From assembly GCA_905178155.1 (NCBI GenBank), contig CAJINV010000002.1:3787838-3851837 (forward strand): a stretch of 64,000 nt of DNA. Reading direction: 5' to 3'. Every line of letters begins with the position of its first letter. The first letter of the stretch is position 1. The stretch is from Amoebophrya sp. A120 (Eukaryota > Protista > Dinoflagellata). The notes beneath the pieces were generated by a model. It had not been told where the DNA came from and searched no databases. It worked only from the letters and a program-made list of their open reading frames with translations. A program made the translations under genes and the position numbers. Shown piece by piece: positions 4,972-59,100 of this stretch.

Positions 4972-7900
4972 GTTTGGCTTCGCGCCTTTTGCGGAGGAAG
5001 GAGAGGGCTGTCGTTCTGTCTCTACTGGGAAGTAGTGCGGGGGATAACAACGCGACCGCAATTAATCTCCGATGGCTACACTCCTGCGTGGGAAAAAAGA
5101 CAGTGCGCGACCAACCGCATCCTTCGGTGCTTACAGCAAAAAAAACGAAAGGCGGGCCGCGCGCGGGCACAGCGCGCAATGAGCAAGACAGCACCCCCCC
5201 CCCCCCNNNNNNNNNNNNNNNNNNNNGGGGGGGGGGGGGGGGGTCCCACCGGGAGCAGCACCGCGCGGCCCTTACCAAGAACACCGCCGCGATGGCCCCG
5301 CTCGGGCGCCGGGTCTTAAACATCACCGCGAGGCGTCTTAGTCATGGCCGTGCGCCCTCTTTCGATCGTCCGGGAGCGAGCTACCGCGCCCGGCCGGCGT
5401 GGCGTGCGTGGCGCCCCAGCGGGCACCCGCTTGGAAATACGGGCGCCGGGCGCGCTGCCTATGACGTTGCGCCCTCTATTGATCGGCCGAAGCCGATCGC
5501 GCTGCCTTCCTGTTGGGGGGGGGGGGGGGGAAGGCTCACACAGATTTGCCGCGTCTGCCGTTGTCAGGTGTGATGACCGGCCTCCAAAATCGATTGGAAA
5601 ACCGCTGTAGAGGATCCCTGATGTGTGATTCTGCGCCATCTTTCCATTGGCTAATGCCAATGATATTGGTACCCACACAGTTTTACCCAAGTTCAAAAAA
5701 TTTGAAAAAGTCATCACGTGCACACATTGCCAAAATACTGAAAAATCAGCCACATGCAAGGGCTCCACGTGTCCGACGCGCTGCCCCGGGCCCATTTTCT
5801 GCACTATATTCCTCATATGGTAGACATTAACCAGCTCTATTCACCATTAAAAAATTCGAAAAAAATTCCAAAAAAATTGAGGAATGACAAAACTCGTAGC
5901 AATTGAGTCAAATGACAAACCAACTTACAAAATGCGCACAGTTTTGAGCTCTCTTTTTATTGGCAAATCCATACTAAAGTAGTACTAGCAAAATTTCCAT
6001 CATCCTCAGAAAATTCAAAAAAATCCAAGAAGTCAAATAATTGCTTTTCGGAGAATAATCCTGCAAATTAGCAGAAAAGTTGTACAGGTGTGGGCTTCTG
6101 GCAAATTTTTGATGCCATATATACATTTATTACATTACATTACAATGCACGAGCAGAATTTTTGTGCGCGGTGCACTTATCCAAAAAAAATGCCTCCCGG
6201 CAATTTTTGTTCGGTGGACTGATTTACTTTAGAAAAATTGTGGAAATGCACAAAGTCCATGCGCAGTGGTTGTATATAGATGCGATCTCCCTGCTTTTTC
6301 ATTATCAAAAAGCCCCCAAGTTGAGAACTAGGCTGATTTGCGAAATTCTAAAAAATTGGAAAAATGCCAATGATTTAAGTTGTGGAGATTCTGCCTATCT
6401 AACTGACTAAAACAGTGCTTAAGGAACGCGATTCGTATCGTTTTCTATGGTTGTTCGATCCGCCAACGCGAGCAAAGCGCTTCCTGTGAAGTTTTCTCAG
6501 TTCTAAAAACATATAAAAACCTTTGGGGCCCTGCTTTGGTGGGATAAGATGGCGCATCTGAAGAATCCAGGTAGAAGCTCCCTTAGGGGCCCGCTTTGCG
6601 ATGCTTGTGCGCACTGTTTTCATTGGCAAACACCGACCAAAACAGCCATGGCAGCCCCCTTCTTCCTTTTGTAAAATTCAACGAATCAGATCGGGCCACT
6701 TCTGGGATGACCAGGCTCCGGAACCCGATGCGGAATACCGTCGCCCGGGGCCCCGCCTATAGCTTTGCGCCCTCTTTCCATCGGCCGGAACCGATCGAAT
6801 CCGCCAAGGCGGCTTCGGGCTCGTTTGCAGAAGTCCCCGCAGATTCCGGCGGCCCGGAGATAATGGGGCGCCGGCGCTTCGTGGTATGCCCCCGCGCGGG
6901 GCGCCCTGCCTGCGCGGTTGCGCCCCCTTTCCATCCTCCCGGAAAGCCAGAAAGCTAGGCGCGACAGACACCGTGGGCCGGCGGATCCGTTTCGGCCCGC
7001 GCACCGGGCGAAAAATACCGCCGCGGAAAGTCCGACGGATGGTCTTGCGGCCTCCCCCCATCGGGCCCGGGCCGATTAAGTTCTCCCTGGTGGCTCCCGG
7101 CGTTGTTTGGAACATCTTGAAAGACGGGTCCTTTGGCGGTCGCGGCCCGGCGGCAGGCCTCGGCGAAGAATGCTGCCGCCTGGCGCGCTGCGTCTGATTT
7201 TGCACCCGGAAGCGATGCGATTTTTGCAAGGGCGCGCCGTTCTTTGACGGAGTTGCCCCCCTGGCGGTTTGAGGTAGTGCATCGCTCTGTGCAGTGTAGG
7301 TTTGAAGCCTGAGAAGTTTCGGCGAGAGGATCAGCATCAGTTGCCTGCCCGCTTTTCATTTTTCCGCCTAGAAGGCTCTTGCCGTCGTGTTTTACGTCGT
7401 TCTTCTACTATTGCAGTTTTGCTTTTGTGAAAAGGACCCGGGCACCAGGTCTGCCGGTTCAAAATTGGCGCCGTCTGTCGGTTCAAAATTGGTGGACCGA
7501 GGCACAGCAAGGACGAGACATTTTTTTGTTTTGTTTCTGATCCAATGTTTTACGCTTTCAAGGTAGTTCGAACGTTCTTTTGCTTCGTCGTCTATTTTGG
7601 CTTCTGTTGTGGGGTTCTTGTCGTTTTGTCTGAGTTCTTCCTGCATCGTGTTGCTATCAGTCTGACGTGTGTCACGACTACTTCTGCGCGGCGCTTGGTA
7701 CCAGAAAAAAAGCGAGAAGCAGTAACGTGGTCTACTTCTCTGTATGAAAAAATTACTGCATGAGGCCGGGATGATCGGCGAGTGCCAGCAGCTTATTTGT
7801 GTCAACACCCTTAGAATTATTATCGTCCAGTAGCTCGTCGGGGTCATCTCTATCTTAGAGAAAGTAGTTTTAAAAGGAATTTTTGGAAGTAGGAGCTGAG

Positions 7901-8136: not shown

Positions 8137-11100
8137 ATGGAAGTCGCCGAGGATAGTTGTACCCACATCCAGCGGGACGAGGGGCCCAGTGCCGACTGGT
8201 GTTGCGAGGCAGGGGCGCAAGAACGAAGCAGGCAGAAGGGTTGTCTTGGAAGAAACACTAACAGGTGGAGCAGGGGGCACGGATCGAAGCAGCGCCGAAG
8301 AAAGATGAACAAGAACCCCATACTGCAACTGCACCTCGCACTGTCGTGCGCAATGAAATCTTACAAGCGCGGCTCTGCGAGGTCGAGAACCAAACACGGA
8401 ACAGCAACAATGAAGACCATGTGCAGCAACTTTAATAAAGAAGCGAGCGAGATGAGAGCAAGACCACGAGCGGCGACGATGAGGCCGCCCGATAAAAGCA
8501 ATTCCTTTTTGCGGCTGGGTAGAAGTTGGCCGGTACAGCTGCGGCTCGTCTGGGAACTGTGCCTGGTGGTGGGGGTGCTCCTCTCCTGCTTCTCGTGCTT
8601 GGTGGTCATCGTCTTTTTGCTCCCTACTTGTTCCCCGCCTCCGTTCGCACTTGCGATGCGCTACATGTCGCTGCAGAACTGCAGCCGCTTTCTGCTCGAC
8701 GAGGATCTCGCCTCTATGGTATCGCAAGAAAATAAAACGAAAATTTGTCATGCGGGCTCCGCAACAAGGGTGGAAAATTTAAATTTTCTCATCCTAAAAT
8801 CCCCTATTCAGCAAAACGACCAGTACTGATCTTTCCACGCTCCACATAACAAGATCTCACTTGAAATTTCTTAGACGATACATGCGTGCGTCCCTGCAGT
8901 ACTTGTTCGAAAAAATCCACCGGTTCCGGCTGGTAAACGATTACTACCTACCGGGCAAACTCGGGATCAACGATCTGTATCGGGAGGGTGCGAGCCAGGG
9001 CGTGATCTTTGCTAACTTTGACGAGTGGCGGTTTCGCCATCTCTTCGACACGAATTTCACGGACGTAAATCTGCTCTTCAACCTGGATCTCCGGTCCCAT
9101 TTCGTCCCGATCCGCAGTCTTCTGACGCAGTTCACGCACACCCGCCCGATCGGGCGATTTGGGAAGGCGGAAAAGGAGGACGCACTGTATCAACTGCAAA
9201 AGTGTCTGGGTCTGGAAGAATGCCAGACTTGTCATGCAGGTTTTCCATAACGCATGAGGTCTACTATGTAGGACATAGCATGACAGATNTGTCTGGGTCT
9301 GGAAGAATGCCAGACTTGTCATGCAGGTTTTCCATAACGCATGAGGTCTACTATGTAGGACATAGCATGACAGATTCTGTGAGAGGTCTACCATCCCTAT
9401 CCTGCATGAGAAACTGCTTCCCGATATGGTCAAAAGTAGACAGCTTTTGGTAATCATGCAACACAGATCTTTACATGATTCAGATTTAGCAAAAAAAAAA
9501 TAAAAAAATTTAGCATGACAAGTTGCTTTGTTCCAGACCCAGATAGTTTTGCATTTGATACACTGAAGAGCTTGACAACGTACGACGCGACGACTGCGAA
9601 CCCGGACCCCTATGCATTGCAAATGTGTCTGGGTCTGGAAGATTGCGAAGGTTCTCATGCTAGTTTGGCATGACTCTGAACTCTGTATTGCGTGGCCACG
9701 AAGACCTCCTCTTGTCTGTCATGCAAAAACGATGTTTCTCATGCGGAATACGCAACACAGAGTCACGAGAAAATGCGTCATGCTTGGCGGTGCATTACAG
9801 TGAGCTTTCTGCTCACTGACATGCATCACAAGTTTCCAGACCCTTTCATATTTGCACTGGATAACCCCGAAACGAATCCAAAACTGTACATGAACAGCTT
9901 CTACCCGGCCGCAACGTCACATTTCGCACACGGGGAGGAGGAGATTCTGTTGCATGCATACGAGAAGAACCACCGAATAAACTTTAAAGTCCGCGTATCC
10001 TGTGTAAAAACGTCCCCGCCCCAGAGTTGTCATGCAGATGCGCAATGACAGGAACATTTGTAATGCGCACCCCCATGATATTATCATATATCATGGGGGT
10101 GGCAGTGCGCACCCCAATGTGATAAGCGTTTCCAGTCGTGTTTTGGCATTTGTAATGCTGTAAACAGGATGAGAAAATGGCTTTCTCATGCGGCTTCCCT
10201 TGCTAACCACCACTACACTGGAGATGGAAACTTGTCATGCACAACTCCCAAGGCCTGGATATTTGTGTTGCAGTTTTGCTAAACTCGACTATGGGGTGGT
10301 GGCGTTTTTACATAGGACACCGCGTAGGCTTCGAACACCACGTGCTCGAGAAGTTGCTGAAAATCGACCGCAGCGGAGTCGTATCCTGTGCAAAACTACC
10401 GTACTAGTATGAATTGCATTACAAATTTTCTCAGCATGAGAATTTTTTTCAAATTTGTAATGCGGGTTTACCTACAGAAATTAATTTGTAATGCGTGACT
10501 GCGATTACTACTAGTACGATACTTTTACAATGCATAGGTCGCCGCGGAATTTTGGCTCCGGCGCCGCGTGCACTGGAACTACCTATCGTAGAAAAAAAAG
10601 CTGTTTCACTCTATTATTAAACTTGTGATGCGTAGAATGGAACGCCGAGGTATTTGTCGTGCTACACACGCAAAAGCAAGACCTGCTTGGATATCCAGCC
10701 GCGTAAGTAGTTTTTCCGCGGCCCTATCGGAAATGCACGCAGAACAAGCTTTCTTCGTCGTGTGTAGCTGCGAACTTATGAAGTTGCAAAACTTGCAAAA
10801 AATTCTTGCAGAGTGAAAGAAGACTCTTTTCCTCCGATACCACCTACTGACGGTCTACTGCGCGCGGAGCCGGGGCCCGTTGTGGAGGAGCGCGCGGTTT
10901 CGAGAACTGCCGGAAATTATCAAATGTAAAAATGTCTGGGTCTGGAAGATTACCAGGTTTGTCATGCACATTTTGCATGACTCCTGATGTCTGTGATGCA
11001 TGCCCTAGCATCACAGATTTTGTGAGGGCTTCTTGATGCCTATACCGCATGACAAATGCTCTCTCCGTGTAGCAAAACTTGGGCTCTCTTTGCTGCCCAT

Positions 11101-14100
11101 GCAATACAGATTTTTTTAGAATCCAAAATCGGCATGACAAGTTGGATTCTTCCAGACCCAGACATTTTTACAGTTGATAGAAATAGGCAAAGACTGGCAG
11201 GAGGAGAAATTTCTTCGCAGTCGCAGGCAGCAAGACTCGGGTATCAAAACGAAAAATCCCTCCTCCCCATATCGAAAACGAAGTTTCTGATGCTGGATTT
11301 GCGTACACAAATCAGATTTGTATTGCTGGCGAGGACTGCAGCCTCACACTAAACCTAAGTAGAGAGGTTTTGGACTAGGCGTCTAGCATGAGGAACGTCC
11401 GTGCTGTAGGCCCATCAGCATCACAAACCGCCTGCACAATGCTGCGGAGCTTGTGGAGTTGCCTCCTTGCAAGACAGATTGGATTCGTGACCTCAAATCA
11501 GCAACGCAAATTTTCGGAGACATACCTTTTCAATATGGGGAGGGGGATTTTCCCTTACGATATCGGGAGCAGCAGCTTCTGGCTCGATAGCGCCAGCATC
11601 TAGTACCTCATCTTCCGCGACGTCTATGCCTGCGGGGCAAGAACAATCTCTGACCGCCGCACAACAAGAAGAAGCGTCTTCTAGTCCTGCCGCAAGTAGA
11701 GCTGGGATGAAGACCGCGGCGTTTGCGCTCCGGTACTACACGCAGAAGAAATTCTATCGCAAGAAAAAAGTGTTACAGTTACACATTGTGTTGCAGACCA
11801 AGCAAGACAGACAAGCTCTGTCATGCCGGATATGCATAGGAGCCTCGTTTCATAGGCGTTTTCCCGTAGGATTTCTGCATTGCAAGTTTTCTATTTCATG
11901 CAGAGAAATTAGTGTTGCTGAATTGACTACAAATGTGTAACTGTAACACTTTTTTCGTGGGATAAATTCAAATCCGAAGTTCTGCAGTCCGACCCAGAGT
12001 GCCTCTACTCGTTCCAACTAGGGTGCCTGCCGAAGTTATGCATTGCAAAAGTAATCTAAATATCTCGCTCTGGATCAGTTGTGATGCGGAAGTTGCGGGA
12101 CGTAGAGATGATCTGTATTGCCAGTCTGAAGGGGATAATTGGCCTTTTTGTCCTGCGAGAAGGCGGTTTGTCATTCTGGATACAAATGAACGCGCAATAA
12201 GATCCGAAAAACTTTTGTGGTGCGTTCCTCCCGTGCAAAAGCCTGCCTGGTCATGCAAGTTGTGGCTCAGCATGACCACTTTCATCCAGGCACAGGGACG
12301 TTGAAATTTGCAAAATGCATAGAAGTTCCAAGACGCTGACTTTTTGACCGGGGTAACGGAGGCAAAGCTGGAAGCGCGGGAAAAGCGGCAAGCGATGACG
12401 GTGTGGGCGCCCGAGTATCTATCGTATTCGTAAAAATGCATAAGTATCGTATTCGTAAAAATGCATTACAAATTTTCTCAGCATGAGAAAGAAAATTTGT
12501 AATGCGGATTTCACCTTAACAAAAAAATTTGTAATGCGTGGCTGCAATTACTACGTATGACTACGATACTTTTGTACAGGGCGCACCNNNNNNNNNNNNN
12601 NNNNNNNNNNNNNNNNNNNNNNNNNNNNNNNNNNNNNNNNNNNNNNNNNNNNNNNNNNNNNNNNNNNNNNNNNNNNNNNNNNNNNNNNNNNNNNNNNNNN
12701 NNNNNNNNNNNNNNNNNNNNNNNNNNNNNNNNNNNNNNNNNNNNNNNNNNNNNNNNNNNNNNNNNNNNNNNNNNNNNNNNNNNNNNNNNNNNNNNNNNNN
12801 NNNNNNNNNNNNNNNNNNNNNNNNNNNNNNNNNNNNNNNNNNNNNNNNNNNNNNNNNNNNNNNNNNNNNNNNNNNNNNNNNNNNNNNNNNNNNNNNNNNN
12901 NNNNNNNNNNNNNNNNNNNNNNNNNNNNNNNNNNNNNNNNNNNNNNNNNNNNNNNNNNNNNNNNNNNNNNNNNNNNNNNNNNNNNNNNNNNNNNNNNNNN
13001 NNNNNNNNNNNNNNNNNNNNNNNNNNNNNNNNNNNNNNNNNNNNNNNNNNNNNNNNNNNNNNNNNNNNNNNNNNNNNNNNNNNNNNNNNNNNNNNNNNNN
13101 NNNNNNNNNNNNNNNNNNNNNNNNNNNNNNNNNNNNNNNNNNNNNNNNNNNNNNNNNNNNNNNNNNNNNNNNNNNNNNNNNNNNNNNNNNNNNNNNNNNN
13201 NNNNNNNNNNNNNNNNNNNNNNNNNNNNNNNNNNNNNNNNNNNNNNNNNNNNNNNNNNNNNNNNNNNNNNNNNNNNNNNNNNNNNNNNNNNNNNNNNNNN
13301 NNNNNNNNNNNNNNNNNNNNNNNNNNNNNNNNNNNNNNNNNNNNNGGGCTCCGCAACAAGGGTGGAAAATTTAAATTTTCTCATCCTAAAATCCCCTATT
13401 CAGCAAAACGACCAGTACTGATCTTTCCACGCTCCACATAACAAGATCTCACTTGAAATTTCTTAGACGATACATGCGTGCGTCCCTGCAGTACTTGTTC
13501 GAAAAAATCCACCGGTTCCGGCTGGTAAACGATTACTACCTACCGGGCAAACTCGGGATCAACGATCTGTATCGGGAGGGTGCGAGCCAGGGCGTGATCT
13601 TTGCTAACTTTGACGAGTGGCGGTTTCGCCATCTCTTCGACACGAATTTCACGGACGTAAATCTGCTCTTCAACCTGGATCTCCGGTCCCATTTCGTCCC
13701 GATCCGCAGTCTTCTGACGCAGTTCACGCACACCCGCCCGATCGGGCGATTTGGGAAGGCGGAAAAGGAGGACGCACTGTATCAACTGCAAAAGTGTCTG
13801 GGTCTGGAAGAATGCCAGACTTGTCATGCAGGTTTTCCATAACGCATGAGGTCTACTATGTAGGACATAGCATGACAGATTCTGTGAGAGGTCTACCATC
13901 CCTATCCTGCATGAGAAACTGCTTCCCGATATGGTCAAAAGTAGACAGCTTTTGGTAATCATGCAACACAGATCTTTACATGATTCAGATTTAGCAAAAA
14001 AAAAATAAAAAAATTTAGCATGACAAGTTGCTTTGTTCCAGACCCAGATAGTTTTGCATTTGATACACTGAAGAGCTTGACAACGTACGACGCGACGACT

Positions 14101-17100
14101 GCGAACCCGGACCCCTATGCATTGCAAATGTGTCTGGGTCTGGAAGATTGCGAAGGTTCTCATGCTAGTTTGGCATGACTCTGAACTCTGTATTGCGTGG
14201 CCACGAAGACCTCCTCTTGTCTGTCATGCAAAAACGATGTTTCTCATGCGGAATACGCAACACAGAGTCACGAGAAAATGCGTCATGCTTGGCGGTGCAT
14301 TACAGTGAGCTTTCTGCTCACTGACATGCATCACAAGTTTCCAGACCCTTTCATATTTGCACTGGATAACCCCGAAACGAATCCAAAACTGTACATGAAC
14401 AGCTTCTACCCGGCCGCAACGTCACATTTCGCACACGGGGAGGAGGAGATTCTGTTGCATGCATACGAGAAGAACCACCGAATAAACTTTAAAGTCCGCG
14501 TATCCTGTGTAAAAACGTCCCCGCCCCAGAGTTGTCATGCAGATGCGCAATGACAGGAACATTTGTAATGCGCACCCCCATGATATTATCATATATCATG
14601 GGGGTGGCAGTGCGCACCCCAATGTGATAAGCGTTTCCAGTCGTGTTTTGGCATTTGTAATGCTGTAAACAGGATGAGAAAATGGCTTTCTCATGCGGCT
14701 TCCCTTGCTAACCACCACTACACTGGAGATGGAAACTTGTCATGCACAACTCCCAAGGCCTGGATATTTGTGTTGCAGTTTTGCTAAACTCGACTATGGG
14801 GTGGTGGCGTTTTTACATAGGACACCGCGTAGGCTTCGAACACCACGTGCTCGAGAAGTTGCTGAAAATCGACCGCAGCGGAGTCGTATCCTGTGCAAAA
14901 CTACCGTACTAGTATGAATTGCATTACAAATTTTCTCAGCATGAGAATTTTTTTCAAATTTGTAATGCGGGTTTACCTACAGAAATTAATTTGTAATGCG
15001 TGACTGCGATTACTACTAGTACGATACTTTTACAATGCATAGGTCGCCGCGGAATTTTGGCTCCGGCGCCGCGTGCACTGGAACTACCTATCGTAGAAAA
15101 AAAAGCTGTTTCACTCTATTATTAAACTTGTGATGCGTAGAATGGAACGCCGAGGTATTTGTCGTGCTACACACGCAAAAGCAAGACCTGCTTGGATATC
15201 CAGCCGCGTAAGTAGTTTTTCCGCGGCCCTATCGGAAATGCACGCAGAACAAGCTTTCTTCGTCGTGTGTAGCTGCGAACTTATGAAGTTGCAAAACTTG
15301 CAAAAAATTCTTGCAGAGTGAAAGAAGACTCTTTTCCTCCGATACCACCTACTGACGGTCTACTGCGCGCGGAGCCGGGGCCCGTTGTGGAGGAGCGCGC
15401 GGTTTCGAGAACTGCCGGAAATTATCAAATGTAAAAATGTCTGGGTCTGGAAGATTACCAGGTTTGTCATGCACATTTTGCATGACTCCTGATGTCTGTG
15501 ATGCATGCCCTAGCATCACAGATTTTGTGAGGGCTTCTTGATGCCTATACCGCATGACAAATGCTCTCTCCGTGTAGCAAAACTTGGGCTCTCTTTGCTG
15601 CCCATGCAATACAGATTTTTTTAGAATCCAAAATCGGCATGACAAGTTGGATTCTTCCAGACCCAGACATTTTTACAGTTGATAGAAATAGGCAAAGACT
15701 GGCAGGAGGAGAAATTTCTTCGCAGTCGCAGGCAGCAAGACTCGGGTATCAAAACGAAAAATCCCTCCTCCCCATATCGAAAACGAAGTTTCTGATGCTG
15801 GATTTGCGTACACAAATCAGATTTGTATTGCTGGCGAGGACTGCAGCCTCACACTAAACCTAAGTAGAGAGGTTTTGGACTAGGCGTCTAGCATGAGGAA
15901 CGTCCGTGCTGTAGGCCCATCAGCATCACAAACCGCCTGCACAATGCTGCGGAGCTTGTGGAGTTGCCTCCTTGCAAGACAGATTGGATTCGTGACCTCA
16001 AATCAGCAACGCAAATTTTCGGAGACATACCTTTTCAATATGGGGAGGGGGATTTTCCCTTACGATATCGGGAGCAGCAGCTTCTGGCTCGATAGCGCCA
16101 GCATCTAGTACCTCATCTTCCGCGACGTCTATGCCTGCGGGGCAAGAACAATCTCTGACCGCCGCACAACAAGAAGAAGCGTCTTCTAGTCCTGCCGCAA
16201 GTAGAGCTGGGATGAAGACCGCGGCGTTTGCGCTCCGGTACTACACGCAGAAGAAATTCTATCGCAAGAAAAAAGTGTTACAGTTACACATTGTGTTGCA
16301 GACCAAGCAAGACAGACAAGCTCTGTCATGCCGGATATGCATAGGAGCCTCGTTTCATAGGCGTTTTCCCGTAGGATTTCTGCATTGCAAGTTTTCTATT
16401 TCATGCAGAGAAATTAGTGTTGCTGAATTGACTACAAATGTGTAACTGTAACACTTTTTTCGTGGGATAAATTCAAATCCGAAGTTCTGCAGTCCGACCC
16501 AGAGTGCCTCTACTCGTTCCAACTAGGGTGCCTGCCGAAGTTATGCATTGCAAAAGTAATCTAAATATCTCGCTCTGGATCAGTTGTGATGCGGAAGTTG
16601 CGGGACGTAGAGATGATCTGTATTGCCAGTCTGAAGGGGATAATTGGCCTTTTTGTCCTGCGAGAAGGCGGTTTGTCATTCTGGATACAAATGAACGCGC
16701 AATAAGATCCGAAAAACTTTTGTGGTGCGTTCCTCCCGTGCAAAAGCCTGCCTGGTCATGCAAGTTGTGGCTCAGCATGACCACTTTCATCCAGGCACAG
16801 GGACGTTGAAATTTGCAAAATGCATAGAAGTTCCAAGACGCTGACTTTTTGACCGGGGTAACGGAGGCAAAGCTGGAAGCGCGGGAAAAGCGGCAAGCGA
16901 TGACGGTGTGGGCGCCCGAGTATCTATCGTATTCGTAAAAATGCATAAGTATCGTATTCGTAAAAATGCATTACAAATTTTCTCAGCATGAGAAAGAAAA
17001 TTTGTAATGCGGATTTCACCTTAACAAAAAAATTTGTAATGCGTGGCTGCAATTACTACGTATGACTACGATACTTTTGTACAGGGCGCACCGACCGGGG

Positions 17101-20100
17101 TCACGGGATCGACGGATCTATGCTGAGTAAAAACGTCCCCAGCCCAGAGTTGTCATGCAAATATGCAATGACAGGAACACTTTCAATGCGCAGCTCCATG
17201 AGAGGTATTTGCAATCGTGTTTTGGAATTTGTAATGCTGCAAGCAGGATGAGAAAATGGCTTTCTGATGCGGCTTCCCTTGCCAACCGGCACTACACTGC
17301 AGAGGGAAACTTGTCATGCACAGCTCCCAAAACATGGAGACTTGTGTTGCTAGATTTCCAACTTGACTATGGGATGGGGACGCTTTTGCTTAGGATAGGA
17401 TCGGTATGTGTCCGTGACGCCACCCATGACGGCGGACGAGATTTTGCAGTCCTGGGCCACGCAGACGACGGACTCGGAGCTCAACAGCAGGGAAAAGCAG
17501 ATCCAAGATCGAAATCAGGTGTTCCTGCACGACCTCCGCGCAATTGACCGGCACGAGACCCGCCGCGTCACCGATCTGCTGACGCACCCCGACATCACCC
17601 CGGGTTTCGTGCAGTACATGAACTACATGGTGCGAAAACCTCCGGCGCACCACTGGAAACCGCGGGCGAATTTGCTGACCGGCGTCGATTATGAACTGCA
17701 AAAGTATGATCGTACTCGTAGTAATCGCCGGCATGCATTACAAACAAGGTCCGAGCACGGGGACAGAGTCCCCGTGCAGCGACCTTCCGGCATTTGTCTG
17801 CGCGGTGGCACTGGGCAGACTGGTCGCTCGCAGCTAGGTATCCCGGTGCGCCTTGCATTCAATGACCCGCGACGGGCCTGCGGACACAGCTCCCTTGCTT
17901 GCGCGCACTAGCTTCATTAGCCTGCCGCGCGCAAAGATAAAAAGAAAAGAAGAAACGGGCACCGGGTCTGGAGCCGGCCCCCAGGTCATGGCGCGGCGAC
18001 AGAGTCCCCACATTGCCCTAGGGTTTTTCTTTGCCCCTTCCTTGGCCGCGCGGTGTGGTTCCCGGGGCGTGTTCGTAGCTAGCCCCTAGGCCATGCCGCG
18101 GGGACCGAGTCCCCGCGCTGGCCTAGGGTTTCCGCCCCTTGGCCGCGCGGTGTCCGGGAAGCGCTTACAGCTGGCCCCTAGGCTATGACGCGGGGACCGA
18201 GTCCCCGCGCTGGCCTAGGGCTTTCGCTCCTTGCTTGACCGCGCCGCGTCCGGGAAGCGCTCGCTGCCGGCCCGTAGGCCATGACGCAGGGACCGAGTCC
18301 CCGCGCTGGCCTAGGGCTTTCGCCCCTTGACCGCACGCGGCCCGGGAAACGCTCACAGCTGGCCCCTAGGCCATGACGCGGGGACCGAGTCCCCGCGCTG
18401 GCCTAGGGCTTTCGCCCCTTCCTTGGCCGCACGGTTCTCGGGAGGCGCATACAGCTGGCCCCTAGGCCATGACGCGGGGACCGAGCCCCCGCGCTGGCCT
18501 AGGGCTTGCGCCCCTTGGCCGCACGGTGTCCGGGAGACGCCCGCCCAGAGCTGGCCCCTAGGCCATGGCGCGGAGACCGAGCCCCCGCGCTGGCCTAGGG
18601 CTTTCGCCCCTTGGGCGCACGGTGTCCGGGAAGCGCCTGCAGCTGGCCCCTAGGCCATGGCGCGGGGACCGAGTCCCCGCGCTGGCCTAGGGCTTTCACC
18701 CCTTTGCCGCACGGTGTCCGGGGACGGAGCGCTTACAGCTGGCCCCTAGGCCATGACGCGGGGACCGAGTCCCCGCGCTGGCCTAGGGCTTTCACCCCTT
18801 TGCCACACGATGTCCGGGGACGGAGCGCTCACAGCTGGCCCCTAGGCCATGACGCGGGGACCGAGTCCCCGCGCTGGCCTAGGGCTTTCGCCCCTTGGCC
18901 GCACGGTGTCCGGGAAGCGCCTAGTTACAGCTGGCCCCTCGGCCATGACGCGGGGACCGAGTCCCCGCGCTGGCCTAGGGCTTTCGCCCCTTCCTTGGCC
19001 GCACGGTGCCCGGGAAGCGCTTCCAGCTGGCCCCTAGGCCATGACGCGGGGACCGAGTCCCCGCGCTGGCCTAGGGCTTTCGCCCCTTGGCCGCACGGTG
19101 CGGGAAGCGCTTGCAGCTGGCCCCTAGGCCATGACGCGGGGACCGAGTCCCCGCGCTGGCCTGGGGCTTTCGCCCCTTTCTTGGCCGCGCGGTGTCCGGG
19201 GAGGGAGCGCGCAAAGCTGGCCCTTAGGCCATGACGCGCGCTGGCCTAGGGCTTCCGCCCCTTGGCCGCACGGTGGCCGGGAACGAAGCGCCCAAAGCTG
19301 GCCCCTAGGCCATGGCGCGGAGACCGAGTCCCCGCGCTGGCCTAGGGCTTTCGCCCCTTGGCCGCACGGTGCCCGGGATCGGTGGAGGCGCTCACAGCTG
19401 GCCCCTAGGCCATGACGCGGGGACCGAGTCCCCGCGCTGGCCTAGGGCTTTCGCCCCTTGGCCTTGGCCGCACGTTGTCCGGGAGCGAAGCGCTCGCAGC
19501 TGGCCCCTAGGTCATGGCGCGGGGACATAGTCCCCGCGCTGACCTAGGGCTTTCGCTCGTCCCTTGGCCGCACGGTCTCGCGTGACAGACTGGGCTTCGG
19601 GTCCAAACCCCACATGACAATCAAAGTCCGAAAGCTTGGCCGGGGTGTGTCCGGAAGTCTGCCCGGGGTGTGTCCGACCGAAAGTCTGCCCGGGGTGTGT
19701 CCGAAAGTCTGCCCGGGGTGTGTCTGGGGTGTGTCTGGGGTATGTTCGGACTTTTTGCCTGGGGTGTGTTCGGGGGTCTGTCTGGGGTATGTCTGGGGTG
19801 TGTCTGGGGTATGTTTATACCCCACCTTCTGCTTTTTCGCCAAAAATTTGTACTCGGGTCGTGATTGACTTCCATTTGCATACCCCTGACACACCCCGGA
19901 ACATACCCCCGAGCATACCCCTCGCATGCATTTTTGACCAGCTGCTGCAGTTTAGATAGTAATCTCCATCCTAAGGTCAAACAGCATGACAAATTCCATT
20001 GGTCATGCTGAGCTAATTTGTATTGCAATTACTACTAGTCGTGCGGTACTTTTGCAATTCATATCGACCACCCGGTGGTGATCCAGGCCCTGCACAATAT

Positions 20101-23100
20101 AACGCGCTTAGCTGTTACAACCTCAAGCGTTACGATAGAATATGGAAATCTGTGATGCAGGGAGTGCATGATCTACCGTAGTCCCATAGGTTTGCGCATG
20201 ACAAGTTTCGGAACCCGAAACCCGACTGGTATCCGGCGAAATTTGTATTGCGAAAGGCGCAAAGCTACATACGTTCCTCATGCTCTTCATGCAAGACAAA
20301 ATCCAGACTCTATTGTAACGTTTGAGATTGTAACGTTTGAGCAGGTCATACACAACCAGCTCAGCTTCTGCGTGCAGAGACGGTACCCGCTTCTGCCGCC
20401 CGAGGCAGAGCTCGGGTACCTGTATTTGACAAAAGTCTTGAAAACCGAAGAAGAAGCACTGAAATTCTACTACGAGCCTGTGGTCAAGGTGGACGATGTA
20501 GAAGTAGTAGATTCTGGCGCTGGAAGTACGAGTACAACCGCCGCTGGTGGCTCAACTAGTGTGAAACAGGAACTACAAGGAGCTGCGAACGAAGCCACAG
20601 TGGTAGAGGACCCCACGAGCGACTCGTCCACACTAGACCAACTGCAGTTTTTGCCGCAGCTGGAGAAGAAAAAGCGGAAGGTATCGTTTGTGAAAACGTC
20701 CCCACCCCAGAGTTGTCATGCAAATCTGCATGCTGGGAACATTTGAAATGTTCTCAGCATGCAGATTTGCGAGAAATGTTACATTTCTCATGCGGAGCCC
20801 GATGAGAGGCGTTTTCTAGTCGTGTTTCGGAATTCTTCATGCTCCAATCAGCATTTCGTGCTAGATCTGTGATGCTGCTGAACTAGCTAAACAGCATTAC
20901 ACTACGAGGCCAAACTTGTCGCGCATAACTCCCAAAACTTGGAGATTTGTGTTGCAACTTTACCAACTTGACTATGGGGTGGACGTTTTTCCACAGGATA
21001 CAAGGCGAAGGCCTGGGCGAAGATTCTGCAGCTGCTGGACCGGAGTGCCAAGGTGTTTGAAAAGCTGGAAGCGGTTCAGCGGGAGTACCAAGAAGAGGAC
21101 AACAGTGTCGTGAGAACAAGTTCTACAGGTACTATAACGTCCCAACTTCTGGAACCCTCCGAGGAGAAGGAAATTCTGGCGAAAATGCGTCGGAAGCTGT
21201 TCCTCACCGAGAAAGTAACACCAAGTAGTAGCACAGTCACGGGTCTTTCTCGTGAAGGAGGGGAGCAGGTGGAGAAGATGGCCAGCGCAGCAGCGGCCAC
21301 CCCGTACGCGCGTCGCCAAAGGCAGCTGCATTTTGAACGGGTGCGGCAGTCGGAGTTTCGGCGGATCCGGGGGGTACCAGACGAATTTTGGATGAGTCCG
21401 GAGCAGTTGGAAACCCTGCACGACGTCCCGTTGCTGTTCGCGTTGCCGTATCAAGTGCAAATATCCCTGGATGTGGTCTGGAAGAACTCAAGTTGTGATG
21501 CCGCATTTGGATTCCAAAAAAATCTGTATTGGATGAGCAGCAAAGGGAAAAGTGCGTTTTTTTCTACGCGGAGAGGGCATTTGCCATGTGGAATGGGCAT
21601 CAAGAACCTTTCCAAAAATCTGTGACGCGAGGGCATGCATCACAGGCATCATGGCTCGTGCAAGACGTGCATGACAAGTGTCAGAACCTTCCAGAGGCCC
21701 GGGACATGTTTGCAGTTGATATGCCGATTTACGACTACGTGATCTCCAACTCGTTGCGGCTCTTCGGCACCTTTGTCGAAAACGAATTGCTATCCATTGC
21801 AAAGATGTCTCGGTCTGGAAGATTCTTGCAGGCATTTGCCATGCTGGTTTTGCATGACCCAGAAGTTCTGGAATGCGGGGTCTAGCATCACAAGCCTTGC
21901 GAGAGCTTTTCCATCATGCCTACTCCGCATGACAAATCCTGTCTCAAGGTGGCCAAAGATCATTGCCAGCTCTTGCTAAACACGCATGACAGATTTTTTT
22001 GTGGCTGTCAGACAGCATCACAAGCTTGTATCTTTCCACACCCAGACACATGTTTGCAATGCATAATTGCAGTTTTTGACCGGCCTGTCCATTCCGGGAG
22101 ACATTTTCGTGGACGTGGGCGCGAGTATCAGAGTGCACAAGAACTTGTTTTCTGTCTCCCTCATTTATCATGTGCTGACTTCTGCCCATTTAATTTCGCG
22201 TGCTGCCTTTCGGCACTGTTGGCATGAGCATGACAAAGTCTTGTAGCGCCGGCGGCGCAACAAGCAGGACTACAATCCGTGCGTTGATGGTGTGCGGTCA
22301 ACATATGCGGGAACTACTGTCAGTCTTGCGGGAAGAACGACGAGTCTGTTTTGCTTATTGTCTTTCTATGTCGCTGCTGCTCTACGCCTGCATCAAATGA
22401 TGATAATTAGGAGGAATGGACGAGCATCAAGTTCTTCTGTCCTCGCTCATAGCAAACCAGGGCGCCTACGCGATTCCGATGGCGAAATGGCTCTCCTTGG
22501 GCGGGATTCCCAGTTGGCACAAAGTCAAGCGGACGACGCCGAGTGTGTTTCGGGACGACGACGGCAAACTGCGGAAGAAATGGTGGGGAAAGGAGTTTTT
22601 TGATAAAGAAGCATCGAAGAGCGGAGGTGATGAAGATTATACCCCTCTTAAAGACGCACAAGCAGCGAAAAGAAATGCGGCAAGAGATGAAGAGGAACAG
22701 CCTGCTCAAAAAAGTACTGGATTCGTTGATAAAGGAAAGGGGAAGGGCGATAGAAGGGAAATGATAGAAATGAAGCAATTACCTTCCGCAGTCCCGGCGG
22801 CCCACGGAACAATCATCCCGGAGGAAACGCTGGCCGCGCAAGTGACCGCTGCGGCGACGACCACGATGGTGGATGGTATTCTATCCACTGCAAAAGTATC
22901 GTAGTCGTTGTATAAATGCACGTCTTGCATTACAAATCTTGTTCCCAAGGCAAAATAGCATGACAAATTCCATTGCTCGCGCTGACGAAATTTGTCATGC
23001 GTTTCGTACTAGTACGATGCTTTTGCATTTCATACATTCTCGCCCCAGTGCAGTACGAACCCGGCCACGTCTACGCCTTTGAGCCGTTCCGCACGCTGTA

Positions 23101-28700: not shown

Positions 28701-31700
28701 ATGCTTGGCTGTGCATTTTTACAGGGCATTCACTAGCACTCCCAACCCAGCATTACAAGTTTCCAGACCCAGACATCTACTTTGCAATGCATAAAACGCA
28801 ACCACAGACCACTTGTCCGGCTACCGCTACGTCGTAGTCGACCTTCCGGGACAGACAGACGCCAGCTATCCGAGGTTTCTGTCCGTCAGTATGGTGAAGG
28901 TTTTTGGCTCGAGTGGCGCAGAGGCAGGAACGACAGGTGCAAAGGTAGTCGCGAGTACCACCACGACCCCGCCCTTCGCCTCCGCCTGCCACGGCTGCTA
29001 TGAAATGCAAATATGTCCTCTGGGTCGGGAAGATTCTGAGATTTGTCATGCAGTTTTTCCAAGCTCCGCCGAGTCTGGAATGCAGAGCCTAGCACCACAG
29101 GATCTGCAGCCCCTTTGAGATGCCTGCTCTGCATGAGAAATGCCCTCCCAGCATGACCAGAAATGAGCACGACCTTTTGCAAGTCACGCAACACAGATTT
29201 TTGTACGATCCGCAACATGCATCACAAGTTCGCATCCTTCTAGACATCCAAGCATATTTGCAATGCATAGCTGCGGAGCGCGGACGAAAGAGTGCTGGAG
29301 CCAGTGCGGGAAATCGTCCAGCGCCGCCAAGTATTCTGTGCAAAAGTATCGTACTCGTATTGCAATCATGCATTACAAATCTTTTTCCTAAGGTAAATCA
29401 GCATTACAGATTTTCTTTCCCATGGTGAGGAGATTTGTAATGCATTTATACGAGTGCGATACTTTTGCAGTTCATAACAAGGAGTGGTGCGCAGCCTGCG
29501 CTACAGAGCCGAGCGAGAGTAACCGCAAGGGGAATTGCTGTTCGTTCGACAAAGCGACCGGGAAGGTGAAACCGGGCCAGGTCGAGGGCTGTATGGTGAT
29601 GAACCAAGATCTATGAACTGCAAATATCCCTGGATGTCTGGAATCTTGTGATGCAAGGAAGGGAATAATGAAAACACTGTAATGCGCTGCCCCGCATGAC
29701 AAGTTTTGCCGTGGTCTTGAGTTGCGTACTCCGCATGAGACGATGTTTTTTTTTTTTGCATGACAGGCACGACGAGGAGCTCTTCGCGGCCACGCAATAC
29801 AGAGTTCAGAGGCATGCCAGACTAGCATGACATATCTCGCATCAATCTTCCAGACCCAGAAATATTTGCAGTTGATAAGACCCCAATCCCGAGCGGTTTT
29901 TCACATCCGACTACTTGACGCATTCTCAGCAGAGCAGTTACGGTTATCGTAAGGGAAAATCCTTCCTCCCCATATCGAGAACGAAATATGTGATGCTGTA
30001 TTTGAGTACACAAGTCGACTTGTATTGCTAGAAGGCCAAGAGCCGCAGTTGTGGCCTCGTTTGCAGGCAATTTGTCATGCTGTTTCCCCCTTCCAGCTGC
30101 CTCCTGTCATGCTGAAGATGCAAGGCTTTCCCACGCCACCCAGCGCTACAGTCCGCATCTTTTCCCTTGTAGCATGACAAAATGATTTGTGTACACAAAT
30201 CCCGCACCACAGACTTCCATTTCGATATGGGGAGGGGGGATTTTTCATTTTGATGTCGGTGCCTGCGTGGTGTTCCCGTTTCCGCAGCCGGACGATCTGA
30301 TATCAAGAAGAAAAATCCCCCCTCCACGTATGAAAACGGAAATCTGTGATGCAGATTTGTGGTCACAGATCAGCTTTGTCATGCTAGAAGGAAAGGCATG
30401 CGGAGTGTAGTACTGGCTGGCGTGGGAAAGCCTTGCGCCTTCGGCATGACAGAGAGCAACTGGAAGTGGGAAACAGCTTGACAAATTGCCTACAAACGAG
30501 GCCACCTGCGGCTCTTGGCCTTCTAGCATTACAAGTCGACTTGTGTACTCAAATACAGCATCACAAATTTCGTTTTCGATATGGGGAGGGGGGTTTTTTC
30601 CTTTTGATATCTGATCCGCCCGGACGACACCTGCTTTTCGCCAAATAACGGTTGGTATGAGACGATTGCGCAACCCCACCCTCCCTCTCATTTGTCATGC
30701 AAAACCCGAAGTCTAGTGCTTGCTTTGTGGTATTTTTCGCATGACAAAATTTTTCCGCAATCCCAAGCAGTACTATGGTCGGCGCATGAACTTGTCATGC
30801 ACAGGCTCCACAAGTGCTGGTGTTTGTATTGCTGTCCATGCCATACAAGTACAACAAATGAGGGAGGGTTGTGGTCTCTCATAGATGGAGCAGTCTGGAC
30901 ACGAAGAGTTGCGAGTGCTGGCACACGTGCGGGGAAAAGTATGCAAGAAAAAAACTGTGTAAGTGTAAATCTGTGATGCAGAAGATGCAAAACAGTTACA
31001 CTTGTCATGCTGGAAGTGCGTCATAGGCTACTATCATACGTGTTTGCACGTACGTAGCTGCGCGTGACAGGTTTTCCCTGTAATGCAAAACAAACTTGTT
31101 ATGCTGCTCTTCCTACAAAGTTACACTTACACAGTTTTTTTCCTGGATAAAAAGAGCGGGAAGTGCAGTAAGTGCACCCCCGGGTCGCCGACCTCGGAGC
31201 ATTACGAGGTATGCATTGCAAATATGTCTGGGTCTGGAAAAATGTCAGGTTTGTCATGCTCTGCTAGCATGACTGTCAAGTCTGTCATGCAAGGTACTCA
31301 AAGCCGCCACTTTTGTGTCATGCAAAAACCTAGTTTCTCTTTCTCATGCAGAATAGGCAACACCTAGCAACTCAAAAACCTGTCATGCTGAGCGGTCATT
31401 TCTGGCGTTCTCTTGCTTCGCCAACCAGCATCACAAGTTTCCAGACCGAGAGGTATTTGCATTTGATACGAAGGTGCCTGCTGCAAGAAGGACGACGCAG
31501 CGAATGCAGCAGAGTGTGTATTACAATGAAAAATGCCCCCACCGCCCCCGAACTTGGCAGCATTTGTATTGCAAACCTTTCCAATGGAAACATTCCCCGT
31601 CTTGCATATCTCAGCATCACAAATTTTCCTTGCTGAAAAGCTCAAATTTGTGTTGCGAAGGAGCCCAACAGCAGTCGGATCTGTTATGCACAAGACACCT

Positions 31701-56100: not shown

Positions 56101-59100
56101 GGAAAAGGAGGGACTCCTGGGTCAATTCGAAGTTCATTTTGATGTTGAGATTGATCCGGCGCATGTATGAAGTGCAAAAGCTTATCGTACAAGTCGGATT
56201 TGACAAGTTCTTCAGTGTTGTGTGACAGCACGATCTTTGTTTTTTCACCTGAAAATTCGCATGGCAATTTCCATTCCCGCATTTGAAAAAATGTGTTACT
56301 ACGGAAAATACTTCCTTACTTTTGCAATGCACATTAGTACTTCCTTACTTTTACTTTTTTACGGTGATGCTTTTGCAATGCACATTAGGCTGGACAAATC
56401 GATTTCGCCTGGGATCCTCATGCGGCTTTGACCGAAGCCGCGATGCAGAATTTAGGAGCAGAGCTGCGGACTGCCGTTAGCAACAATGCGGCTAACATGA
56501 GTATGAGTATATCAGTTCCCGATACTGACGCAGTGCCAGGAACGGTCATCGTTACAACAACCACAACCACGACGACCACGCCGACACTGCTACCCAGGGG
56601 CTTCGACCTGAAACTGCAACTTCCAGACGGTACTGACGTTGCGACTGCGCTTCGTGATCCTGCACTGAAAAGCAGCCTGGTGGCCGGGTTGGTTGAATTT
56701 TTGAACGGGCAGCCGGGTGGGGTAACGCTGACAGCTGACCAGATCGAGAATTTGCAAATCAGGGAGAAGGAGAATGCCCAGGGGCAATATGAAGTGCTTT
56801 TTGATATTGAAGTCGACCCTGCGGATGTATGCAGAGTGAAAGTTTTTTATCGTGCTGGGGCGAGAAGTTCTGCAATGTCGCATGACAAGTTTTTGCTTTC
56901 TATGTCTGAATCTGCATGAGAAACAAGGTCATGGCGCGGGGACAGAGTCCCCGCGCTGCGACCTTGCGGCGAAGAAGGGCCACCCGCGGCGGCTTTTCTT
57001 GCCCATGATGCGGCAGGTTTTTTTTTTGCGACAGAACGGGGTAGCTTGGCGCTCGTGGTGCCGGCGCCCCCCCTGGAAAAATGCGCCTTTTTCTGCGCCC
57101 CTGGGCGGGGCGCCCCCCCCAAAGGACTACCCACGACCAACCGAGGGCGCGGCCGTCCGGGAGGTTGTTTTCCCGAACCAGGGCGCGCGGGCCTGTTTCT
57201 GCGCCCCTGGGCGGGGCGCCCCCCCCAAAGGACTACCCCCGACCATGCGAGGGGGGGCGCGGCCACCTTCCTGGAGCCTGTTCTCCGAACCAGGGCGCAC
57301 AGACCTGTTTCTGCGCCCCTTGGCGGGGCCCCCCCAGCAGGACTACCCACGACCAAGTGAGGGGGGGGCGCGGCCTTCCTGGGGGCTGTTAGTTCGCTTC
57401 GCACTCCCGAATCAGGCCGCGCGGACCTGTTTCTGCGCCCCTGGGCGGGGCGCCCCCCCCCCAATGAATAGGCAGCCAATCTTTGGCCCCCGGGGTCGGG
57501 CCTGACTCTTGAAAAGCGGCCCCCGGGGTCGGGTGTTCCTTTTCCGAAGTCAGGTGGGGAGCATGTTTTGAGTTGTGCAGGAGGTTTTTGCCGATTCGGG
57601 TCGTGTTGGATACCCCCGAACAGGGGTCGGAACATACCCCGGAACACACCCCAGAACACACCCCGAAACACACCCCAGACCATGCCCCGAAAGCCACTTT
57701 CCGACAGTCAGGTCCGGGGTCGGGCCAGACTCTCGAAAAGTGACCTCCGGGGCCGGGTGTCACTTTTGCCGAGTCAGGTGTGGGGTATGTTTTGGGGGGT
57801 GCGTGAGGAAATGGCCGAGTTAGGTCGTGTTTGATACCCCGGAACAGGGGTCGGAACATACCCCGGAACACCCCCCGAAAACTCATTTTTGGGCAGTTGC
57901 TGCAGTTTAAATAGTAATTTCATTTTTACTTCTGCAAAAATTTTCAATCGCAGTACTAATTTCTAGTGCGATAGTACATCTTTTGCAAATGCATACCCTG
58001 CTGAAAAAGTCGACTACGCCTGGCATCCCGATGTGGCTTTAACTGCAGACGAGATGGAGACTTTGGGAACAAAGCTCCAGACGGCCGTTAGCGCAAATGC
58101 GGCCAACATGACCACGCAAGTAACTGTACCTGATCCCGCCGATGCTGTAACAGGAACGGTCCTCGTTACAACGACCACCACAACCACTACCACACCAACA
58201 CTGCTACCCAGGGGCTTTGACTTGAAATTGAACCTTCCAGCAGGTGTCAACAACGTTGCGAAAGCGCTGGAAGATCCCGTGCTACGAAGCAGCGTGGTTG
58301 CGGGTGTATTGGAATTTTTAAACGGGCAGCCGGGTGGGGTAACGCTGACAGCTGATCAGATCGCGAATTTGCAAATCAGGGAAAAGCCGGGGGTGTCGGG
58401 GGAGTTTGAAGTGCTTTTTGATATTGAAGTGGACCCTGCGGATCTATGCAGAGTGAAAGTTTTGTCGTGCTGGGGCGAGAGGTTCTGCAGTGTCGCATGA
58501 CAGATCTGGTTTTTATGTGTGAATCTGCATGACAAATTTCCAATTTTTGCTTCTGCAAAAATTTTCAATCGCAGTACTAATTTCTAGTGCGATACGACTT
58601 TTGCAAATGCATACCCTGCTGAAAAAGTCGACTACGCGTGGCATCCCGATGTGGCTTTAACCGCAGACGAGATGGAGACTTTGGGAACAAAGCTCCAGAC
58701 GGCCGTTAGCGCAAATGCGGCCAACATGACCACCCAGGTAACAGTACCTGATCCCGCCGATGCTGTAACAGGAACGGTCCTCGTTACAACGACCACCACA
58801 ACCACTACCACTCCGACACTGCTACCCAGGGGCTTCGACTTGAAGTTGAACCTTCCAGCAGGTGTCAACAACGTTGCGAAAGCGCTGGAAGATCCCGTGC
58901 TGAGGAGCAGTGTGGTTGCGGGTGTATTGGAATTTCTAAATGGGCAGCCGGGTGGTGTAACGCTGACAGCTGATCAGATCGAGAATTTGCAAATCAGGGA
59001 AAAGCCGGGGGTGTCGGGGGAGTTTGAAGTGCTTTTTGATATTGAAGTGGACCCTGCGGATCTATGCATTGCAAAAGTTTATTTATCGTGCTCAGGCGAG

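Follow-up and report, generated by a model that had tools for sequence, protein, structure and literature searches.

Introners and genes of the window

The window – the whole stretch of 64,000 nucleotides from Amoebophrya sp. A120 that was analysed, and to which coordinates refer unless stated otherwise – is gene-dense, and its introns are mostly introners: elements of 150-310 bp with terminal inverted repeats (TIRs) that start with TAT and end with ATA. One of these (17690..20063) follows a plus-strand exon (17399..17689) whose open frame ends ...LLTGVD and precedes a second plus-strand exon (20063..20140), which starts IDHPVV... and, once 17690-20062 is taken out, continues the frame of the upstream exon. 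Without the insert that it carries, this introner is a TATG...CATA element of 156 bp, with TIRs that match at 13 of 14 positions and a flanking TCGA direct repeat. A second introner with an insert (56828..57995) belongs to a different family; this intron has been tandemly duplicated into three copies, of which one is filled and two are empty. The gene that holds it (55851-60900) consists of tandem exon-plus-introner units, in which the introner copy at 56828 is filled and those at 58445 and 59063 are empty.

From the exon frames only, we infer that the element would be removed by splicing together with its host introner. A 1276-base contig of X4 (a run that is RNA only by guess) spans 17398-17661 without differences, and the spliced joint 17689-20063 is absent among the 15 joints listed (of 44).

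Elsewhere in the window, positions 9290-12587 are repeated at 13795-17092 (100% identity) and 8754-9288 at 13346-13880, with a gap of Ns (12588-13345) in between: this is likely to be an assembly duplication, and one copy of the duplicated block (8754-12587 / 13346-17092) was masked in the counts given below. A coding repeat of 144 bp occurs 16 times (51863-54169; 98% alike) within a frame of 965 amino acids; the Pfam matches there contain no stretch that passes and look spurious. On the minus strand, a frame of 697 amino acids (2968-5061) encodes a cyclic-nucleotide-binding domain (E 3e-14).

Two inserts and two further copies

The insert in the first host introner (e1; 17745..19962, plus strand) is 2218 bp long and that in the second (e2; 56924..57917, plus strand) 994 bp, and the two have both termini in common, as the first-pass annotation had reported. 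Both are GC-rich. Their left ends are 85% identical over 47 bp and their conserved right ends (19897..19962 in e1; 57852..57917 in e2, by comparison with e1) 79% identical over 66 bp; the interiors are unrelated except for short C-rich repeats and copies of a hairpin, and e2 has internal repeats of its own (106 bp and 12/24 bp). The window contains no third copy.

A scan of metagenome contigs with an element-internal pattern that was blind to the flanks gave two further loci, L001 and L002; patterns of the element ends had no match in the viral contig or genome contig collections. L002 is a copy of 379 bp that keeps both ends and lies after GCATTACAAA and before T, in a host that represents a third introner family. 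L001 (5955-6843 of its contig), inserted after GCATCACAAA, comprises the left 797 bp only: the right end is missing and in its place stands a 46-bp perfect repeat of the left flank, followed by T, with no obvious microhomology. This is a single observation, and the contig stops 44 bases later; within that contig the flank has no BLAST match to introners of the window and no TIR call. Three of the four copies are therefore known to lie in introners and L001 is not recognisably so. The same three keep both ends, with at most two ambiguous bases and no tail.

By sequence identity L002 pairs with e1 (70% over 249 bp; subfamily A) and L001 with e2 (86% over 151 bp; subfamily B), so that two diverged subfamilies share one target. 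L002 appears to derive from an e1-like element by internal deletion. Copies of subfamily A hold internal hairpins of subfamily B type, and at about position 5055-5075 L002 retains a stub of one such unit.

Structure of the ends

The left end forms a fold-back of 43 nt that extends to the terminal base and has an inner stem of 10-11 bp (17745..17787 in e1, predicted at -17.2 kcal/mol with DNA parameters; 56924..56966 in e2, -19.9 kcal/mol, where CAAGGTC pairs with GACCTTG). One pair in it is compensated, being A-T in e1 (subfamily A) and G-C in subfamily B. The hairpin that the first-pass annotation placed about 10 nt before the end corresponds to the inner stem, but this stem is part of the larger fold-back that reaches the terminus. 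Fold energies are alike on the two strands and indicate no strand preference. The inner stems show seven A-C and no G-T departures on the plus strand (about 3-4 independent events); by eye, the outer stems and the subfamily B end do have G-T on that strand, so wobble pairs give no strand call.

Copies of the terminal hairpin recur inside e1 as an array of 16 units of ~94-96 bp on the plus strand (17979..19550; 15.8 copies of 96 bp according to TRF). These units are nearer to the subfamily B end (88-97% identity to the left end of e2), and most of the 16 terminate in CTAG, which reads alike on both strands. To the right of the array lie the subterminal short repeats GGGGTGTGT and CATACCCC (19626..19921 in e1), which also occur near the right ends of e2 and L002. 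The right end itself follows the consensus ...GCTGCAGT(T/C)TA(A/G)ATAGTAA in all three full-length copies, and has a conserved tip of 19 bases besides the short CATACCCC repeats.

The element ends carry no TIRs, and a TIR transposon or MITE was excluded on this ground. A search of e1, e2 and L002 for an inverted repeat of Helitron2 type gave at best 4-7 bp exact, or 7-8 bp with one mismatch, and the best direct repeats within the terminal 30 nt are of 3-4 bp and not terminal, leaving only an AA overlap. Depending on how the junction is parsed, the element starts with TT, TA or AC on the minus strand, or with CA on the plus strand, and never with a 5' TC; the other terminus is in all full copies CTTG (minus) or GTAA (plus), and never CTRR. 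The last six bases of the element match the last six of the target at four positions (e1, e2 and L002).

Empty sites and junctions

Minus their inserts, both host introners align to paralogous introners right through the insertion point. Empty paralogues of the first host (for example 22887-23034 and 29339-29476) are 71-75% identical to it; those of the second are found at 58438-58618 and 59056-59242. The inserts thus interrupt introners that are empty at the same position in their paralogues. Since the sister introner copies are empty, the insertion of e2 is likely to postdate the tandem duplication of the exon-plus-introner unit. A contig joint that skips exactly 2218 bases is present in X1, X2 and X4 and may represent a paralogue, not an empty allele. 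With two diverged subfamilies, four loci and empty paralogues at hand, an assembly artefact was excluded for e1 and e2.

The exact junction is less certain. With AAA at the end of the left flank and TAGTAA at that of the insert, the junction can slide by two letters in e1 (to the left), e2 and L002. An insertion between A and T without duplication – the original description – is one valid parsing, but insertion between T and T, a duplication of 1 bp and a duplication of two bases (AA) fit equally well.

Insertion next to a ten-base word

All four copies directly adjoin the 3' end of the word GCAT(G/T/C)A(C/G)AAA, before a T and in a single orientation (the C variant entered the motif only once L001 had been seen). 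In the window the word is GCATTACAAA at 17735..17744, directly 5' of e1, and GCATGAGAAA at 56914..56923, directly 5' of e2, both on the plus strand and both followed by T; the shared motif position and orientation of the two inserts had been recognised in the first-pass annotation, which regarded targeting as unproven. The four locations comprise three introner families and the site of L001, which is outside any recognisable introner. For the two out-of-sample copies the probability of such co-location by chance is 7.5e-5 if all AT sites of the window are admitted, 3.8e-4 if any AT inside introners is a target, and 0.02 if AAA^T is already required; chance co-location of element and word was rejected on these low probabilities (7.5e-5 to 0.02). 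T follows the word in 56 of 93 cases in the window, so its presence at all four copies adds little.

The word itself is common. There are 94 occurrences in the window, compared to 0-2 in each of five shuffles, and 74 of the 94 fall inside 59 hand-listed introner intervals that make up 14,272 of 55,294 bases (26%). A single introner may contain several occurrences, both orientations are found, and families with unrelated TIRs share the word; its candidate roles are those of a binding site in transposition (transposase), splicing or chromatin. The earlier claim that the motif recurs in all introner families goes too far: the exact motif is present in 35 of 47 automatically called TIR elements (a rough figure, given that the caller yields 6-13 elements per shuffled window) and a family of ~210 bp (2788, 16260, 30940 and 51109) lacks it.

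Contig depth in X1, a DNA run, bears on the same question. There are 28 X1 contigs on 17725-17835. Among the eight pieces listed, one contig of 59 bases, which starts at AAA, has a depth of 1943, ~48 times the ~40 of unique contigs. Followed upstream from the element, summed depth is 9884 at 17745-48, 9342 at 17741-44, 5999 at 17737-40 and 4132 at 17733-36, then 74.5 at 17729-32, values in which overlapping contigs are summed, which are not copy numbers, and from which flank contigs without the word, matching fewer bases, may be missing. Shared depth thus starts at 17733-17736, where the word begins. This suggests that the copies in X1 with the word at their flank number in the tens, and that their flanks diverge past it.

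Together, with L001 and L002 adjoining the word and shared depth in X1 stopping upstream of it, these data support targeting of insertion by sequence. Since L001 lies outside a recognisable introner, the target would be the word and not the introner, and the niche in introners would then follow from where the word is concentrated. Copies outside introners, or with target-site duplications or TIRs, had been named in advance as evidence against the first interpretation; L001, with its 46-bp duplication, is such a copy, one of the four.

Relationship to known mobile elements

The comparisons made here and in the next section refer to the available portions of the cited sources. Helitron1 elements share with the present family the lack of TIRs, a GC hairpin near one end, a possible A^T site, and short conserved ends with captured or repeat-filled interiors (PMC11417382, PMC5148889); their 5' TC and CTRR are absent here, where instead there is a fold-back to the terminus, a target of ten bases and, once, a duplication of 46 bp. 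A Helitron1-like 3' hairpin 10-12 nt before the end is present on the minus strand, but within the 43-nt fold-back. Helitron2/Helentron elements and the FoHeli1/2 elements of Fusarium resemble the family in having a hairpin at the terminus, a target word on the 5' side, a T-ambiguous junction and repeated copies of the hairpin end: FoHeli1/2 have the hairpin at the extreme 5' end, insert after TNAT and may have duplicated 5' termini (PMC5148889). Helitron2/Helentron insertion in TT or T(T/C) corresponds to T^T on the minus strand, one valid parsing here; the asymmetric terminal inverted repeat of 11-18 nt (PMC11417382) is not found and the target is longer. By the ends tested, this is a mobile family that belongs neither to Helitron1 nor to Helitron2. 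"Helitron-like", as the first-pass annotation had it, can stand only as a possible way of working, given that 5' TC, CTRR and the Helitron2 repeat are all missing.

Insertions of Replitron-1 lie 3' of RG and in one orientation; their target duplications vary, and the right end is sometimes truncated (PMC10288648), a geometry like that of L001. Replitron-1 and N1 thus share with the family a left end fixed 3' of the target, a single orientation, right-end truncation and, at the right end, a duplicated stretch of upstream flank that varies; they differ in their terminal direct repeat and in the target (RG vs ten bases), and no Rep was found in the 63 frames searched here. IS91 requires a CTTG target by oriIS; its terIS is cut at a target-like site, and termination is leaky (PMC13181058). 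The target at the origin end, the target-like cut site at the terminator and the leaky far end would be points of likeness; IS91, however, makes no target-site duplication and has a target of four bases, and the element described here is eukaryotic and non-coding.

Transposons that parasitise other transposons at a fixed place are known: Tx1 inserts into Tx1D, and SINEU-3 and Tx1-Mar into Mariner-N4_AMi, at long specific targets, with target-site duplication, truncation or no target change (PMC4494074). As here, the host is a non-autonomous TIR transposon, and R2 SIDEs provide a likeness to copies with both ends and an internal deletion. SINEU-3/Tx1-Mar and R2 SIDEs differ in that no snRNA or tRNA head, ribozyme or tail was detected in the present family, and its hosts are several unrelated introner families with only a word in common. 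The introners themselves agree with those described for Amoebophrya A120 by Farhat et al. (PMC7789003), since the hosts start with TAT, seven variable bases and As, and have direct repeats of 4 nt; that paper, in its available text and one supplement, differs in mentioning no Helitron or nested element. DIRS, Crypton and two motifs are likewise without a match in the supplement. The element end strings are absent from the available contents of supplementary files 1-12 of PMC12130899, and none of the 18 mentions of Helitron in file 8 is in an Amoebophrya row. No report of an element that targets introners was found among the papers listed on introners and Amoebophrya or on Amoebophrya and Helitrons, a scope outside which subscription papers fall.

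Mode of transposition

The explanation that we put first, and hold tentatively, is a non-coding, TIR-less mobile family of two subfamilies that inserts 3' of the word and would be mobilised as single-stranded DNA by an HUH (rolling-circle-type) enzyme acting in trans. The putative enzyme would bind the hairpin end and nick the plus strand at word^CAAGG (the origin end); the strand would be copied as far as TAGTAA, a leaky terminator similar to the last bases of the target, and then joined to another occurrence of the word. In this scheme L001 would stem from an event that was broken off and then repaired, with a duplication of 46 bp. Since the word is found mainly in introners, insertions would for the most part come to lie inside introns and be removed with them. 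An HUH origin at the hairpin end is favored because the ends are asymmetric, tail-less and precise in three of four copies and it is the far end that fails, because the word stands 5' of the joint on the plus strand, as in IS91, FoHeli1/2 and Replitron-1, and because duplications of the upstream flank like that of L001 are known from Replitron-1. The first-pass annotation assumed the opposite polarity, with the hairpin as 3' terminator: this fits less well, for the hairpin end is fixed and adjacent to the target and the other end was lost in L001. Several observations sit uneasily with an HUH enzyme. The ten-base target is longer than the HUH targets AT, TT, TTTT, TNAT, RG and CTTG, terminal direct repeats of Replitron type are missing (3-4 bp at best), fold energies choose no strand, and L001, on which the far-end failure is seen, is a single observation 44 bases from a contig end. 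No transposase, Rep, reverse transcriptase, helicase or recombinase was found by Pfam match in 63 frames (55 of the 133 in the window and eight of L001 and L002).

Moreover, truncation together with a long duplication that starts from the nick, as in L001, is what target-primed reverse transcription classically leaves behind, and it is this geometry (in one of four copies) that would be explained by a SINE- or SIDE-like element carried as a passenger by a site-specific non-LTR retrotransposon, the main rival and in our judgement a possible but rather unlikely origin. The minus strand would correspond to the RNA and the hairpin to its 3' recognition signal; a plus-strand nick after ...AAA would prime reverse transcription, with a second nick 2 nt away producing the AA, or 46 nt away in L001. 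Such a passenger has the best ecological precedent (SINEU-3, Tx1-Mar and Tx1), passengers with both ends but an internal deletion exist (R2 SIDEs; PMC3414825), and long target-site duplications are known from Dualen and R9 (PMC9977147). Yet three of the four copies share an identical far end with at most two duplicated bases, and the hairpin end has no poly(A) or simple-repeat tail. No RNA-gene head, ribozyme or tail was detected: the A/B box pattern has no match, no tRNA was predicted and no Rfam family reaches the gathering score (the best E-values being 0.78 and 0.64; divergent boxes would escape). Summed depth in X1 is alike near the left and the right interior of e1, 956 (17820-17923) vs 958 (19588-19691), which speaks weakly against an abundance of truncated copies.

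A Helitron-type element read on the minus strand, with a T(T)ACTA start, a hairpin-CTTG end, an A^T or T^T site and the motif 3' of the nick, appears improbable. Both sites do suit the junction, and the inner stem ends 9-10 nt short of the CTTG end. Helitrons of Paramecium carry satellites and target telomeric repeats in a fixed orientation (PMC13085455). Against this, there is no 5' TC, 3' CTRR or asymmetric terminal inverted repeat of 11-18 nt, and in Helitrons it is the 3' end that leaks (PMC5148889); in the present family the hairpin end stays fixed and it is the opposite one that is lost, in L001, with the 46-bp duplication. Of the 16 hairpin units most have CTAG at the end, a terminus canonical for Helitron1, but this tetranucleotide is a palindrome that takes part in the fold-back of the unit itself, which makes it weak evidence. 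Least probable of all, in our view, is a recombinase (serine-recombinase or Crypton-like) that integrates a circle via a 2-bp AA core. It would account for the overlap of two bases at both junctions and for the strict orientation. Cryptons have a terminal donor word near-identical to the target (PMC9977147), and the four matches among the last six bases in e1, e2 and L002 point in the same direction; the near-identity in Cryptons, however, extends over 5-6 bp, and here AA alone is common to both junctions. In all three full-length copies TAGTAA is retained at the right junction and the whole target at the left one, leaving no shared core of 5-6 bp; L001 would demand a separate repair event, and no recombinase is among the 63 frames.

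Implications

The copies described here constitute a real mobile family, non-autonomous, that parasitises a word in which introners are rich. Parasites of transposons are already known (Tx1 in Tx1D, SINEU-3 in Mariner-N4), which limits the surprise; strict targeting by a DNA-type element, on the other hand, is rare in eukaryotes. At its most far-reaching, and this we consider doubtful, the preferred HUH explanation would make this a eukaryotic HUH family that reads a ten-base word, far in excess of the targets described for Helitrons, Replitrons or IS91, has become locked onto a motif of many unrelated introner families and rides in a niche that is spliced out, and its transposase would be a new sequence-specific integrase. 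A parasite of introners is a handle on what the recurring introner word does, and on whether the non-canonical splicing of hairpin introns tolerates a GC-rich insert of 1-2 kb. The enzyme that inserts at a defined ten-base site in a fixed orientation, whether HUH enzyme, site-specific reverse transcriptase or recombinase, would be worth finding.
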